From: Candidatus Helicobacter avicola
GTDB lineage: Bacteria; Campylobacterota; Campylobacteria; Campylobacterales; Helicobacteraceae
Direction: 5' to 3'
Assembly (NCBI GenBank): GCA_019112865.1
Contig: DXIN01000025.1
Location: 5,498 to 69,497, forward strand
DNA length: 64,000 nucleotides
In this document: positions 1 to 64,000 of the stretch, in pieces
Layout: each line of letters opens with the position of its first letter
How positions within the stretch are numbered: position 1 is the first letter of the stretch
Made by a program: the position numbers and the translations under genes
Notes under the pieces: generated by a model
Database searches by the model: none
What the model saw: the letters and a program-made list of their open reading frames with translations, nothing else
What the model was told of the DNA's origin: nothing

Positions 1-1248
1 AATATCGGTATAGAGGCGTTTGGTGAGGGGGAATTAGACTATGCGCTAATGCTTGGAATCTTGGCAGGATCACAAGATAGTGCGCTATACAAATCAAGCA
101 AAAAAGAATCCATACTAAAAAAAGTCTATATACAAGGTGCGCGCACACTTGAGCAGGAAGCCAAAAAAGCAAAGATTATAGCAAAAAGCCTGCATATCGT
201 GCGGGATTTGGTCAATACGATGCCACAAATTGCCACACCATCGTATCTTATGCAGTATTGTAAAAAACTTGCACAAAAAAAAGAGCTAGAGTGCAAAGTC
301 TTAGATGAAAAGGATTTACAAAAAGAGCGTATGGGCGCATATCTAGCAGTAAGTAGGGCATCAAGCAATCCACCATATCTCGTGCATCTAAGCTATAAGC
401 CCAAAAAGCCACTAGCGCGTATCGTGGTAGTAGGTAAGGGATTGACATACGATAGTGGGGGACTTAGCCTTAAGCCCAGTGATTATATGGTAACAATGAA
501 GGCAGATAAAAGCGGTGCGTGTGCGGTTATAGGGATTTTGAATGCTGTGGCGGGACTTGGGGTAAATATTGAGGTGCATGGGATTATTGGTGCAGCGGAA
601 AATATGATAGGTGGTAATGCGTATAAGCCTGATGATGTGCTATTTTCGCGTGAGGGCAAAAGCATAGAAGTGCGCAATACTGATGCGGAGGGGAGATTGG
701 TATTGTGTGATTGTCTTAGTTATGCTCAAGATCTCAAGCCCGATGTGCTTATAGACTTAGCAACACTCACAGGTGCGTGTGTCGTGGGACTTGGTGAATA
801 TACAAGCGGGATTATGGGCTATAATGAAGAGCTGAAAGAGGAATTTGAATCTTGTGCGTTGCGCAGTGGCGAGTTAATGGCGCGTTTGCCATTTAATCGT
901 CATATCAAAAAACTTCTAGAATCTAAAATTGCCGATCTTTGCAACATTGGCTCAAGTCGCTATGGTGGGGCAGTGAGTGCTGGAATGTTTTTGGGAGAAT
1001 TTGTACGTGATGAGTATAAAGACAAATGGTTGCATATCGATATTGCTGGACCTGCGTATGTGGAGAGAGAGTGGGATATAAATCCAAGTGGTGCGAGTGG
1101 AGCTGGGGTGCGCGCGGTATTGGCATTTATACAGAATCTAGAATCCAAAGGGGATTTCAAAAGGGAGCGTAGCAAAGATTCTAAAAAGACACGCAAAAAC
1201 CCAAATACACAGAATCTAAAAGCCCAAAAATCCACAAAAAAGGCGTGA
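1..1248 (+). CDS. pepA: Leucyl aminopeptidase (M17), 5' end cut by window edge; carries an atypical Lys-rich C-terminal tail
   Basis: Frame is open from nt 1. M17 catalytic-domain motifs present ([29 protein letters not shown]). Stop TGA at 1246-1248. Confidence 0.9.
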
Positions 1249-1250
1249 GA

Positions 1251-2351
1251 ATGGGGCTATCTATCGGTATTGTGGGACTTCCAAATGTAGGAAAATCTAC
1301 GACTTTTAACGCACTTACCAAAACCCAAAATGCCCAAGCGGCAAATTATCCATTTTGCACCATAGAGCCTAACAAGGCAGTAGTGAGTGTGCCTGATGCG
1401 CGTTTGGGAGAGTTGGCTAAGATTGTTAATCCACAGAGAATCTTGCACTCCCAAGTGGAGTTTGTGGATATTGCTGGGCTAGTGCGTGGTGCGAGCAAGG
1501 GCGAAGGGCTTGGCAATCAGTTTTTGGCAAACATCAAAGAGGCGGATGTGATTTTACATATCGTGCGGTGTTTTGAGGATAGTGATATTACGCATGTAGA
1601 AAATCGTATTGACCCATTGGGCGATATTGAAATCATTGAGTTAGAGCTGATTTTGGCAGATATTGCGACATTGCAAAAGCGCATCACTAAACTAGAGCGG
1701 GAGAGCAAGGCGCAAAAAGGTGCAAATACGACACTTGAGCTTGCAAGAGCGTTGCTTGCGCATTTAGAATCTGGTAAAAGTGCTAAGAGTTTTGAATCTC
1801 GTGAAAGTCAGGAATTTTTGGGGCTTGATAGGGAATTGCGGTTTTTGAGTAACAAAGAAGTAGTGTATGGGGCGAATGTCGATGAAAATGCATTGGGTGT
1901 GGATAATGAGTTTGTAAAAAAAGTGCGTGCGTATGGGGCAGAGCAGGGAAGTGAGGTTATCAAACTTTGTGCTAAGATAGAGGAAGATATGGTGGGTATG
2001 AGTGATGAAGAGAGAGCAGAGTTTTTGGGTGAGCTGGGAGCGGGTGAGAGCGGACTTGCGCAGATTATCCGTGTGTGCTTTGCAAAGCTTGGGTTGATTA
2101 GCTACTTTACCGCTGGGGTGCAGGAAGTGCGTGCTTGGACTATCAAGAAGGGTGATAAAGCACCACAAGCTGCTGGCGTGATACACAAGGATTTTGAAAA
2201 AGGCTTTATCCGCGCAGAAACGATTAGCTATGAGGATTTTATCAAATATGGTGGCGAACAAAAAGCTAAGGAGGCTGGAGCTATGCGAAGTGAGGGCAAG
2301 GACTATGTCGTGCAAGATGGCGATGTGATGCACTTTAGGTTTAATGTATAA
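1251..2351 (+). CDS. ychF: Ribosome-binding ATPase YchF (Obg-family P-loop NTPase)
   Basis: N-terminus GLSIGIVGLPNVGKST, later DIAGLV; C-terminal TGS-like domain ending VMHFRFNV. ATG at 1251 fits the usual YchF N-terminus better than GTG at 1245. Confidence 0.95.
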   Translation: MGLSIGIVGLPNVGKSTTFNALTKTQNAQAANYPFCTIEPNKAVVSVPDARLGELAKIVNPQRILHSQVEFVDIAGLVRGASKGEGLGNQFLANIKEADVILHIVRCFEDSDITHVENRIDPLGDIEIIELELILADIATLQKRITKLERESKAQKGANTTLELARALLAHLESGKSAKSFESRESQEFLGLDRELRFLSNKEVVYGANVDENALGVDNEFVKKVRAYGAEQGSEVIKLCAKIEEDMVGMSDEERAEFLGELGAGESGLAQIIRVCFAKLGLISYFTAGVQEVRAWTIKKGDKAPQAAGVIHKDFEKGFIRAETISYEDFIKYGGEQKAKEAGAMRSEGKDYVVQDGDVMHFRFNV

Positions 2352-2372
2352 CTTGAAAGCAAGAGCAATAAA

Positions 2373-3563
2373 ATGGTTAGTGTTGGTATTTCAAGATTAA
2401 ATCTATCTTTTAGTTATTTTTGTGCATTTTTGCCATGGGCTGTGCTACCATTTAGTGCACCTTTAGCATTTTATGTTGGTTTGCTTGTATTGTTAGTCTT
2501 ATCTTTCTTTTATCCATCACAATCTGTGCGTGTTATTTTGGCGGTATGTATCATCATAGGTGGTGCTGTGGGATTTGGAGATAGTCAATTTACAAGTGAT
2601 ATGGAAAATTATCACGGCACTTATACGAAGCTTTTTAATGGGGATTTTGAGGCAATTTTTGATTATGGACGTGGTGTAGAAGTTATAATGCCGCTTTTTT
2701 GGGTTGTGCTTAGTTTTTTTGATGGATTTTTGAATTATACAGCATTTGGGGTATTACATGCTCTGTGTGCTGGGATTTTGTTCTATATCTGGCTTGAAAA
2801 GTATGCTCTTGAGGGTTTTGATACTAAGAAAGTAGCAGTATGTGTGTTTTTCTCGCTTTTGATGTTTGATTATTGGATGCCACAATGGCTTTTGCGGCAA
2901 ACATTTTCTTGTATCTTTGTGCTTTATGCGCTAAGCCAAAATACGCGTTTTAAGACATTTGTGTTTTTGTTGATTGCAGTTTTTTGTCATGTGAGTGCAA
3001 TTTTGTTTTTTGCTTTGTGGTATTGGCTAAGAAAATATCCAAAATTTGGTGCAATGTGTATAGTTTTTTTGTGTTTTATGATGTTGGCAAACTTTTTATT
3101 TCCTTGGTTGTATGCTTATGCTTCGATGTTGCCAGAGAGTTTTAGTCATAAACTTGTTTTTTATCAGTATAGTTTGAACAATACTATCAGTGATGGCTTT
3201 TCTGCATCGCTTTATGTGTATATTATAGCCATTGTTTTTTGTGCGTGGTATTTCCGGGATAGCGTGGATCGCAAGTGGTTGTGGATTATCATTTGGTATG
3301 GAATTTTGTGTTTGTGTGCCAATGCAGTGTGGAATCACTTTTTTATACGCGTGAGTATTTTGTATTTTTACATTTCATTAGGGTTTTTTATGTTTGTAAG
3401 TATGCAAAAAAACACTTTCTTGCTCTATATTTGGGGGAGTTTATTATTTATAAATCACATACGAACAGCATATGCTAAGGGAGTGGCAAACCTTAGCAAT
3501 ATCCAATACCACTTTCATAGTTATGGTTTGGGTGGAGAGTGGTTTTATTTTATTCTAAATTAG
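2373..3563 (+). CDS. Polytopic integral membrane protein, EpsG/Wzy-like (possible glycan polymerase); function uncertain
   Basis: 396-aa ORF with more than 10 hydrophobic segments rich in F/W/Y. General resemblance to EpsG/O-antigen polymerase-type proteins; no diagnostic motif verified. Confidence 0.45.
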   Translation: MVSVGISRLNLSFSYFCAFLPWAVLPFSAPLAFYVGLLVLLVLSFFYPSQSVRVILAVCIIIGGAVGFGDSQFTSDMENYHGTYTKLFNGDFEAIFDYGRGVEVIMPLFWVVLSFFDGFLNYTAFGVLHALCAGILFYIWLEKYALEGFDTKKVAVCVFFSLLMFDYWMPQWLLRQTFSCIFVLYALSQNTRFKTFVFLLIAVFCHVSAILFFALWYWLRKYPKFGAMCIVFLCFMMLANFLFPWLYAYASMLPESFSHKLVFYQYSLNNTISDGFSASLYVYIIAIVFCAWYFRDSVDRKWLWIIIWYGILCLCANAVWNHFFIRVSILYFYISLGFFMFVSMQKNTFLLYIWGSLLFINHIRTAYAKGVANLSNIQYHFHSYGLGGEWFYFILN

Positions 3564-3574
3564 TGCTACAATCC

Positions 3575-62618: not shown

Positions 62619-62662
62619 AGGATTCCTTTAAGATTTTGGTAATTTCTTAAGTAATTTTAGCG

Positions 62663-62668
62663 TATAAT
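62663..62668 (+). promoter_or_regulatory. Candidate -10 box (TATAAT) for gmd
   Basis: Exact TATAAT 74 nt upstream of the gmd ATG. Confidence 0.3.
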
Positions 62669-62741
62669 GGGCGGATTTTGTGTTGTGATTATCCCAAAAA
62701 CATCGGGAGCGTTACAACAAACTTGATTTTAAGGATTTGCT

Positions 62742-63851
62742 ATGAAGACTGCACTTATCACAGGTATCACCGGACAAGATGGCGCGTATCTCGCGGAATT
62801 TTTGCTCAAAAAAGGTTATGAGGTGCATGGGATAAAACGCAGAAGCTCACTTTTTAACACTGATAGAATCGATCATCTCTACCAAGACCCCCATGTGGCA
62901 AATCGTAATTTTTTCCTGCATTATGGAGATTTGACAGATTCACTCAATCTCACGCGTATTATCCAAGAGACTAAGCCTGATGAGATTTATAACCTCGCGG
63001 CGATGAGCCATGTGGCAGTGAGTTTTGAGACACCAGAATACACTGCTAATGCTGATGGTATCGGCACACTTAGAATCTTAGAGGCAGTGCGCCTACTAGG
63101 GCTGATAGAAAAGAGCAAGGTTTATCAGGCTTCTACCAGTGAGCTTTATGGGCTTGTGCAGGAAGTTCCACAGAGCGAAAAGACACCATTTTATCCTCGT
63201 TCTCCATACGCGTGTGCGAAACTCTATGCGTATTGGATCACGGTTAATTACCGCGAAGCATATAATATCTTTGCAAGCAATGGAATCCTCTTTAACCACG
63301 AGAGCCCTATACGCGGCGAGACATTTGTAACGCGCAAAATCACGCGTGCGGTGGCAAAGATCGCACTTGGATTACAGGACAAACTCTATTTGGGCAATCT
63401 TAGTGCTAAACGCGATTGGGGTCATGCCAAGGATTATGTGCGTATGATGTGGTTAATCCTCCAAGCTCCTAAGCCCGAGGATTGGGTCATCGCCACAGGC
63501 GTTACTACGGAGGTGCGTGAGTTTGTCAAGATGGCATTTGGTGAGCTTGGTATTGAGATAGAATTCCGTGGTGAGGGTGTAGAAGAGAGGGGCTATATCA
63601 AGGCGTGTAGAGGTGATTTCAAGCTAGAGGTTGGCAAAGAAGTGGTAAGTGTCGATGCGCGGTATTTCCGTCCTACTGAAGTGGATTTGCTCATTGGTGA
63701 TGCGAGCAAGGCACGCGAAAAATTAGGCTGGGTGCCAGAATACGATCTCAAGGCATTAGTCCAAGATATGGTGCAAAGTGATTTGAAACTTATGCAAAAG
63801 GACAAATACCTCAAAGACGGCGGTTATGAGGTATTTAGCTATTTTGAGTGA
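62742..63851 (+). CDS. gmd: GDP-mannose 4,6-dehydratase
   Basis: SDR-extended motifs ([41 protein letters not shown]). Confidence 0.95.
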
Positions 63852-64000
63852 TTTTGGCAACGAGAGGTCATTAAAGCCATTGTAAAAGCAAGAGTGCATA
63901 CACCCTTAGAATCTATTTGATTGCACTCCTAATGCTTTGGGTGAAAGAGCTCAAGAGGGACTTTAAGCACAACCTTTTGGGGTTGGAGTAGGGGAGTTAT

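Follow-up and report, generated by a model that had tools for sequence, protein, structure and literature searches.

A hyper-abundant GAATC word in Candidatus Helicobacter avicola and its enterohepatic relatives, possibly a methylated self-DNA tag

One short DNA word, AGAWTCT (W being A or T), is found at a striking density throughout a 64-kb stretch of the Candidatus Helicobacter avicola genome (contig DXIN01000025.1, positions 5,498 to 69,497; 42.1% G+C, approximately 95% coding), hereafter referred to as the window. An exact count gave 157 copies (83 AGAATCT and 74 AGATTCT), while 100 dinucleotide-preserving shuffles of the window contained 10.73±2.92 copies, with a maximum of 20, which corresponds to a 14.6-fold excess. 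Base composition alone (zero order) predicts about 11 copies, and the excess persists against a third-order Markov model, under which 26.5 copies are expected (z≈25). An earlier reading of the window made from its letters only, hereafter the sequence-only reading, had tallied by eye about 150 copies in balanced orientations and an approximately tenfold excess over base composition, and had called for such a Markov check; the exact figures agree with it on each of these points. The word is installed at the DNA level, is shared in lineage-specific forms by many enterohepatic species, and may serve as a methylated tag of self-DNA.

We sought the unit that carries the excess. The sequence-only reading had taken this unit to be the 9-bp palindrome TAGAWTCTA, a view that the counts do not bear out: TAGAWTCTA occurs 33 times (21 + 12), with 30.5 occurrences expected from its 8-mers at maximal order, and variants that break the symmetry are very unequal, TGAATCT being present 67 times and AGAATCA 4 times. 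Similarly, the 157 AGAWTCT copies compare with 147.8 expected from the two constituent hexamers. Because the numbers of 7-mers and 9-mers are fully predicted by their sub-words, the excess is seated in the hexamer and the pentamer: GAATCT/AGATTC was found 257 times against 67.6 expected at third order and 143 at maximal order, and GAATC 339 times against 222 in the nested-word analysis. GAATC is followed by T in 76% of cases and preceded by A in 57.5% and by T in 25%. When 20 bases on either side of the 157 copies were compared, the profile was flat except for slight preferences for T at -1 and for A at +7. The informative part is thus no longer than 6-7 bp, GAATCT with W on its 5' side, in place of the extended 9-12 bp consensus of DNA uptake sequences (DUS) and uptake signal sequences (USS), and the flat flanks identify a dispersed oligonucleotide rather than a long repeat. 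The constrained word is W-GAATC-T, of which AGAWTCT is the commonest, quasi-palindromic form.

The word contains GAWTC, a subset of the methylation target GANTC, and the central base of this target is itself constrained. Among the 358 GANTC sites of the window, 339 (95%) have A or T at the centre; GAWTC is above expectation (339 versus 138) and GASTC (S being G or C) is depleted fivefold overall (19 versus 100), being rarer in every frame. The deficit is deepest, 20-fold (2 versus 43 expected), in the frame where the change from S to W is a synonymous transition (GAG/GAC to GAA/GAT), compared with 3 versus 15 and 13 versus 26 in the frames where it is non-synonymous, and for this reason much of the GASTC deficit is best seen as a consequence of conversion to the favoured word. 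Avoidance of GASTC as the driver of the excess was rejected, the flux being too small: about 81 sites have been lost, whereas the gain amounts to about 200 for GAWTC and about 145 for AGAWTCT. Nor does the pattern match restriction-site avoidance, which leaves the target under-represented, since GAWTC is enriched and GASTC alone is depleted. Sequences differing from the word by one base at core positions are mostly depleted as well. From the deficit of GASTC it also follows that the favoured word is narrower than the GANTC target of the methylase. As such an enzyme accepts any central base, it would not by itself explain the word; the specificity for a central W, together with the flank dialects described below, points to a separate reader.

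Most copies (146) lie wholly inside coding sequences, at a density of 2.4 per kb. When synonymous codons were permuted within each gene, leaving the protein sequence and the codon usage of the gene unchanged, 25.5±4.6 copies were obtained, with a maximum of 40 (z=26), and permutation of codon order left 12.3. All six frame/orientation classes are enriched, by 2.4- to 13-fold over the synonymous shuffles, and intergenic DNA holds 7 copies where about 0.6 are expected, a number reached in none of 2000 shuffles. Codon and dipeptide usage therefore do not reproduce the excess, whereas its reproduction by synonymous shuffling was what the sequence-only reading had named as a refutation, and the distribution over frames and strands that it wished to see tested showed enrichment in every class, at an orientation ratio of 83:74. 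The coding depletion and intergenic concentration of GANTC that characterize CcrM-type systems are not seen, coding DNA being about sixfold richer in the word than its synonymous shuffles.

Inside genes, the word is read in the ways that had been noticed from the sequence: 100 of the 146 coding copies encode E-S or D-S, 37 encode N-L or I-L and nine encode R-I or R-F. TCT encodes 125 of the 268 serines that follow glutamate or aspartate, compared with 317 of all 1495 serines, and the dipeptides ES and DS exceed expectation 1.4-fold and 1.85-fold, respectively. Only two of ten motif-encoded E-S/D-S pairs are E-S in the Helicobacter pylori orthologs, so sites have also been made by amino-acid replacement at variable positions. 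The main route of installation is the synonymous choice of GAA or GAT followed by TCT, with a contribution from the replacement of variable residues by Glu/Asp-Ser.

No preference for strand or gene orientation was observed. On the + strand GAATCT occurs 123 times and AGATTC 134 times, in spite of a uniformly positive GC skew, and AGAWTCT counts referred to the sense strand of genes are 75 versus 71. In the absence of any skew, strand or replication polarity, as in Chi or FtsK-orienting polar sequences (KOPS), was discarded. Copies are evenly distributed along genes, with no bias in position. The gaps between them average 404 bp and are roughly exponential (coefficient of variation 1.17), which rules out regular spacing apart from clusters at 15 and 18 bp; no periodicity is visible within the 64 kb. 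Gaps of 30 bp or less number 24 against 11 expected, with peaks at 15 and 18 bp that are due to hairpin-like pairs (AGAATCT-N8-AGATTCT) and to the in-frame elements described below. The window gave no Rfam or tRNA matches, and involvement of a structured RNA is not supported. Taken together, the word is installed wherever coding constraints allow and acts at the DNA level, on the duplex, independently of strand or gene orientation. On the data of the window it displays the genome-wide excess in both orientations, in genes and spacers, that typifies DUS and USS. Some genes have no copy at all, namely those for a PAS protein, elongation factor P, fructose-bisphosphate aldolase, a peptidyl-prolyl isomerase, an AI-2E transporter and TruA. 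These genes are located at 18619-21595, 30635-31705, 33435-33899 and 44456-45205, and the longest gap between copies measures 2.5 kb.

We then asked how well the sites are kept, using codon alignments with relatives and other 7-mers as controls. In the closest species (loci L003-L006), 53-70% of sites are still AGAWTCT, as compared with 19-32% of control 7-mers, and in the group of H. cinaedi, H. japonicus and H. marmotae the figures are 21-28% and 7-9%; in H. pylori, H. felistomachi and Wolinella the figure for the window's sites is zero. The four-fold degenerate third base of the serine codon TCT is retained in 88-94% of cases inside motifs versus 63-69% outside them, in the same direction in 8 of 8 comparisons, each of which is marginally significant alone. 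Two conspecific metagenome contigs, 98.1-98.4% identical to the window, differ from it at 0 of 364 and 2 of 364 motif bases, against 1.65-1.8% elsewhere (Fisher p=0.002 for contig L001 and 0.14 for the other). As for HIP-type words, conservation exceeds the neutral expectation. These data fit active maintenance of the word, whether this is due to purifying selection or to a conversion drive with the same effect.

The distribution of the word was surveyed in about 20 kb around oorB from 80 genomes. Judged by OorB and its surroundings, the window derives from an uncultured Helicobacter that is akin to H. equorum, 'Helicobacter sp. TUL' and MIT 00-7814. AGAWTCT is present at 1.4-3.5 per kb in many enterohepatic species, including H. 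equorum, H. cinaedi, H. magdeburgensis, H. labetoulli, H. japonicus, H. marmotae, H. canis, CLO-3 and several metagenome-assembled genomes (MAGs). All gastric species surveyed (H. pylori, H. cetorum, H. suis and the H. felis/heilmannii group) have 0.0-0.4 per kb, at or below expectation, and no enriched GAWTC-containing word was found at the oorB loci of the enterohepatic 11S02596-1, 13S00477-4, H. cappadocius and H. mesocricetorum. The highest density was that of a 21-kb locus from H. saguini (QBIX01000001.1 1637563-1658657; L083), with 137 AGAWTCT copies, that is 6.5 per kb or about 30-fold over zero order; GAWTC is present there 179 times against 45 expected and GASTC 2 times against 26, and a longer form, T.TAGAATCTW, is preferred. 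At this locus the intergenic DNA, about 4 kb in all, has 31 of the copies, and a CcrM-like methyltransferase gene has 12; an adjacent 266-aa open reading frame has one, clpP and a ferredoxin gene none.

Other lineages carry GAWTC in different flanks. In two Helicobacter-like MAG contigs from gut metagenomes (L094 and L098), GCGAATC/CGAATCT reach 65 and 39-48 copies per 21 kb, and in the Wolinella MAGs (L043 and L065) GGGAATC/GGAATCG are enriched; AGAWTCT itself is at background in all four. The core GAWTC is therefore constant and the flanks vary (TA..TA, TG..T, TA..CA, GC.. and GG..; lineages in Table 1), as in the dialects of DUS and USS that share a core. Palindromy is not conserved, as G or C takes the 5' place in other lineages (GGAATCT, GCGAATC). 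Enterohepatic Helicobacter and Wolinella share an excess of GAWTC words as a trait of the family, the flank dialects varying with lineage. In three gastric loci, from H. felistomachi, H. heilmannii and H. ailurogastricus (L044, L050 and L074), GAWTC is depleted about fourfold (9-10 per 21 kb), more so than GASTC (20-28), an asymmetry that suggests either GAWTC-specific restriction pressure or GANTC pressure with a different bias.

The sequence-only reading had linked the word to GANTC methylation, and this link has gained outside support. In the single-molecule real-time (SMRT) methylome of H. typhlonius, 20,492 of 20,546 GANTC positions (99.7%) of the 1.92-Mb genome carry N6-methyladenine (m6A) and GANTC accounts for 71% of all m6A, an abundance on which the authors made no comment (PMC4705304). 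By our own arithmetic this corresponds to 5.35 sites per kb, 1.5-fold over zero order; the window has 5.6 per kb and the same ratio. Methyltransferase loci were found by a six-frame scan of fetched loci, which yielded a HinfI-like enzyme in H. suis, followed by a search for its homologues; this set of contigs is not free of bias. A solitary methyltransferase of the CcrM/HinfI family was found in H. saguini, in H. himalayensis and at the MAG loci L094/L098, L096/L097 and L100/L101, at four different genomic positions; no HinfI endonuclease (PF09520) was adjacent to these genes, nor any recognisable remnant of one. The alignment of the H. saguini enzyme to the CcrM model runs from end to end (E=5e-138) and scores below the equivalog cut-off. 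At every one of these loci, GAWTC is 2-4x over expectation and GASTC near zero. Clustered at 90% identity, the L096/L097 enzyme falls together with that of Helicobacter sp. MIT 00-7814, which is closely related to the window's species and has 2.75 AGAWTCT per kb, and the L096/L097 contigs themselves resemble the window (42.8% G+C, 2.5-2.7 motifs per kb, dialect), their species identity being unproven. Conversely, contigs that carry the methyltransferase together with a HinfI endonuclease (L085-87 and L090-92) are depleted in GANTC 4-5x, and in H. pylori GANTC is depleted about twofold.

Individual copies were also located (Table 1). Of the 157, 130 are singletons with unrelated flanks and 27 lie inside repeated elements; as a set they share neither extended flanks nor terminal inverted repeats, as dispersed repeats do. 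In 3 of 55 genes, the stop codon is the TAG of TAGAATCT: two of these had been spotted in the sequence-only reading, at 44436-44438 and 52111-52113 (oorC), and leuD is a further case. The copy which that reading had placed at 5216 in the leuD-leuC spacer is present (5216/5217) and is part of an inverted pair belonging to the repeat family D5, AGAATCT-N8-AGATTCT, which has seven copies. Of the two inverted pairs it had listed, that at 58653-58679 was correctly placed and that given as 14291-14311 lies in fact at 14288-14306. The former is part of an inverted repeat, I1, whose 54-nt arms (18462-18515 and 58623-58676) are 78% complementary, stand 40 kb apart and both contain TAGAWTCTA; the second arm falls in a region where gene calls differ between the conspecific contigs L001 and L002. 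Most close inverted pairs sit inside genes.

Table 1. Location of individual copies, pairs and motif-rich element centres in the window, and flank dialects in other lineages
Feature	Position	Strand	Context or lineage
leuD stop TAG inside TAGAATCT	4682..4689	-	gene leuD 4687..5181(-)
LptF/LptG-family gene stop TAG inside TAGAATCT	44436..44443	+	gene 43380..44438
oorC stop TAG inside TAGAATCT	52111..52118	+	gene oorC 51562..52113
Inverted pair TAGAATCT-N8-AGATTCT	5216..5238		straddles the leuD-leuC spacer and the leuC 3' end
Cluster of five alternating copies (14288, 14300, 14321, 14350, 14366)	14288..14372		inside methyltransferase-domain gene 13692..14597
Inverted pair TAGAATCT-N10-TAGATTCTA	58653..58679		part of 54-nt inverted repeat I1
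Motif-rich element centre	9188..9245	+	gene 8532..10124
Motif-rich element centre, five copies	11435..11525	+	gene 10629..13691
Motif-rich element centre	16675..16714	+	gene 15926..17338
Motif-rich element centre, five copies	54028..54103	+	gene 53531..56155
Dialect TG-GAATC-T			H. rodentium / MIT 11-5569
Dialect TA-GAATC-CA			H. zhangjianzhongii / H. canis
Dialect GC-GAATC			two MAGs (L094, L098)
Dialect GG-GAATC			Wolinella MAGs

An in-frame element of about 230-300 nt was found in four unrelated genes (9030-9345, 11258-11540, 16108-16300 + 16600-16760, and 53876-54130), the hosts being glycerophosphotransferase-like, YidC/sulfatase-domain, thiamine pyrophosphate (TPP)-enzyme and FrhB/PS_pyruv_trans genes. 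Its left arm, AAGGCATTCAGCTTTTAGCGATAAA...TTTCTCATCTnAAATCTTAGAAT, is conserved, and 3-5 copies of AGAWTCT crowd its centre, in keeping with what had been read from the sequence; at 9313-9343 the end of the arm is found once more, inverted. In the gene at 53531..56155 the element encodes about 45 extra S/E/D-rich residues, which the L003 ortholog does not have. In its organization it resembles a miniature inverted-repeat transposable element (MITE) or the Rickettsia palindromic element. Three of the four elements are hosted by a cluster for phosphonate and surface glycopolymer synthesis (8532-18422), whose genes include a phosphoenolpyruvate mutase fused to a cytidylyltransferase, a phosphonopyruvate-decarboxylase-like TPP enzyme and an iron-dependent alcohol dehydrogenase, and where the motif density of 3-7.7 per kb is above average. 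Homopolymeric tracts (G11 at 8547-8557, G10 at 14457-14466 and C9 at 53577-53585) stand at the starts or ends of genes of this cluster and of the FrhB/PS_pyruv_trans gene, where they probably act as phase-variation switches; GGGGGGG is over-represented in several relatives too.

The above findings suggest, by analogy with known systems, that the word could be a methylated tag of self-DNA, recognised when DNA is taken up or recombined. We regard this as the best explanation and give it a probability of roughly 0.35. According to this model, a solitary CcrM/HinfI-family methyltransferase would place m6A on GAWTC sites, and the dense methylated word would mark DNA as self or close kin. A putative reader, more specific than the methylase, would recognise the mark during natural transformation, at uptake or in early recombination. 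Word-bearing fragments would be preferentially taken up or recombined, and the word would as a result accumulate across the genome. The logic is that proposed for DUS and USS, for methylated RAATTY in Campylobacter jejuni and for methylated HIP1, the hyper-abundant word of cyanobacteria.

Several observations weigh against this tag model. The 6-7 bp core is shorter than classical DUS and USS (9-12 bp), and the copies are spaced roughly exponentially rather than evenly. H. pylori is highly competent and yet lacks the word, so competence alone does not call for it. The 64-kb window contains no methyltransferase gene and no competence gene that we could find, and among the best 120 matches of the protein searches there was no named H. 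equorum or H. cinaedi homologue of the methyltransferase, the nearest named carrier being MIT 00-7814. The candidate enzyme of H. typhlonius is listed without an ortholog in H. hepaticus. Furthermore, the gastric H. labacensis/vulpis carries a solitary methyltransferase of the same family without enrichment, which contradicts the idea that an orphan methylase is sufficient. Finally, the conservation of sites and their low polymorphism suit any selective function equally well.

One such function would be a chromosome-level epigenetic or architectural mark, in which methylated GAWTC is selected for binding a nucleoid or regulatory protein, or for DNA mechanics, with no relation to uptake. The duplex-symmetric, orientation-independent distribution, the conserved and under-polymorphic sites and the near-complete GANTC methylation of H. 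typhlonius all accord with it, the preferences for flanks and central W imply a specific protein reader, and for HIP1 a nucleoid role has been argued by Xu et al. from conserved sites and periodic spacing (PMC5861425). We nevertheless consider it unlikely, although worth keeping in mind: no candidate protein is known, no periodicity appears within the 64 kb (a 10-90 kb period being beyond the window's reach), the fast change of flank dialects recalls self/non-self codes more than it does a conserved architectural protein, and several enterohepatic and all gastric lineages do without the word. Rather less probable in our eyes is a word with no function, generated by a neutral, context-specific and possibly methylation-directed repair or mutation process that corrects near-matches into it, as Elhai proposed for HIP1 in 2015 (PMC4390886). 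The depletion of GASTC, one step away from the word, that of most one-off core variants and the additive enrichment over nested words speak for such a process. The neighbour depletion of a very-short-patch-type repair was looked for and is absent, the neighbour with T for C (AGAATTT) standing at 1.4x and that with A for G (AAAATCT) at 4x; GASTC is scarce in non-synonymous frames also, amino-acid replacements have been accepted to create sites, and a drive would need to cover all seven positions with a flank specificity that changes between lineages. To our knowledge, moreover, m6A has no deamination-type mutability and Helicobacter has no MutHLS.

A Chi-like signal, recognised by AddAB (RecBCD-type) when double-strand breaks are processed and over-represented to protect the genome, is in our opinion improbable. 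A length of 6-7 nt, a density of about 1.2 per kb per orientation and an excess in core genes are all within the range of known Chi sites, and we know of no Chi sequence for Helicobacter AddAB; a Chi-like role is also weighed for HIP1 (bioRxiv 10.1101/2024.09.10.611283). Known Chi sites are skewed along the direction of replication, whereas the strand counts given above (123 versus 134, and 83 versus 74) show no such bias; H. pylori has AddAB without the word, and a methylation site within Chi would be left unexplained. The two remaining accounts have very little to commend them. That the word is a by-product of coding or restriction, arising from a preference for Glu/Asp-Ser codon pairs or dipeptides or from an avoidance of GAGTC/GACTC that pushes sequences into GAWTC, would agree with the share of E-S and D-S readings, the surplus of ES and DS dipeptides and the lack of GASTC; it is contradicted by both codon shuffles and by the enrichment of the other five frame/orientation classes and of intergenic DNA, the loss of GASTC falls well short of the gain of GAWTC, and the flank preferences are unexplained, making it very improbable. 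Least credible is the idea that copies are remnants or footprints of the in-frame element. Its centre does carry several of them, and the excess of 15- and 18-bp gaps would be expected from it; the contradiction lies in the 130 copies outside repeated elements, with no similarity in their flanks, and in copies at conserved orthologous positions in the housekeeping genes of other species.

The word belongs in kind with HIP1 and with DUS/USS, from which it differs in phylum, length and methylation class and in being only quasi-palindromic. Like HIP1 (GCGATCGC), it is short, hyper-abundant in genes and spacers and orientation-independent; it embeds a DNA methyltransferase site, its orthologous positions are kept beyond the neutral expectation and it has lineage variants. 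HIP-type words are perfect palindromes enriched at least 15-fold. By contrast, the Helicobacter word is found in Campylobacterota, has an AT-rich 5-7 bp core that is palindromic only around an ambiguous centre and not at all in other lineages, embeds GANTC (the m6A, CcrM/HinfI class) where HIP1 embeds CGATCG/GATC, and, with an enrichment in the window of 14.6-fold over dinucleotide shuffles and about 15x over zero order, is a borderline case at the bottom of the 15-300x range of HIP1. The function of HIP1, long unknown, has now been tied to methylation-dependent transformation (PMC5861425, PMC4390886, bioRxiv 2024.09.10.611283, bioRxiv 2026.06.24.733823): methylated HIP1 raises transformation (bioRxiv 10.1101/2024.09.10.611283) and HIP1 abundance correlates with DNA-uptake genes (bioRxiv 10.64898/2026.06.24.733823). 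The word has much in common with DUS of Neisseriaceae and USS of Pasteurellaceae: copies number in the thousands per genome, are found in either orientation both within and outside coding DNA and occupy variable positions of proteins, where they cost some amino-acid changes, and a constant core, here GAWTC, is set in lineage-specific dialects (PMC3630211). DUS and USS differ in that they are 9-12 bp long and non-palindromic, contain no methylation site and have an experimentally shown uptake bias and link to competence, and DUS often forms terminator hairpins, unlike most close inverted pairs of the window, which are intragenic.

Within the same phylum, methylated RAATTY of C. jejuni, the site of the orphan methyltransferase CtsM, is described in summary as a frequent self mark for natural transformation (bioRxiv 2024.09.10.611283). 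There too the site is a short, AT-rich, palindromic m6A target of an orphan enzyme, with a high genomic frequency. The site and the enzyme family are others, the central W and the flank constraints of the Helicobacter word exceed the GANTC specificity of its methylase, and the uptake effect is experimental in C. jejuni while both methylation in the window's species and an effect on uptake are at present deduced. CcrM of Alphaproteobacteria is a solitary methyltransferase of the same family with the same GANTC target; in that class GANTC is scarce within genes and gathers in regulatory regions, whereas GAWTC is 2.5-4x over-represented everywhere in the Helicobacter case and nothing suggests a cell-cycle role. 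HinfI and HpyAIV recognise the same site and have homologous methyltransferases, with the opposite sign of effect: the site is avoided where the endonuclease is present and enriched in the window. The sequence-only reading knew of no description of such a motif, and in our full-text literature searches we likewise found none, of the word or of GAWTC enrichment in Helicobacter, the hits being primers and unrelated matches.

Hyper-abundant short words are known from few clades (DUS, USS, HIP1 and Chi), and each has opened up uptake, recombination or chromosome biology. The present word would extend the list to Campylobacterota, a phylum with major pathogens whose enterohepatic members are genetically hard to handle. 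Should it be a methylated self tag, methylated AGAWTCT in constructs could ease the transformation of H. cinaedi, H. hepaticus, H. bilis and their relatives, an approach that was successful with HIP1 in Synechococcus. As lineage markers, the dialects could help in metagenome binning and host assignment, and annotators should be aware that the word biases codon pairs and dipeptides toward E-S and D-S, supplies stop codons and seeds low-complexity in-frame inserts. The contrast between gastric species, where the site is avoided, and enterohepatic species, where it is enriched, offers a natural experiment on a methylation site that switches between a restriction target and a selected signature. 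In a wider and more doubtful interpretation, enterohepatic Helicobacter and Wolinella would use a methylation-gated, lineage-specific DNA self code that decides on uptake or recombination; it would be written thousands of times in the genome, methylated by a solitary CcrM-like enzyme and read by a receptor whose flank specificity has diverged into dialects, and gastric Helicobacter would have lost it once restriction came to target the site. Were this so, uptake-sequence biology would have been invented a third time, independently, and in a form that ties a DUS-like drive to orphan methylation.

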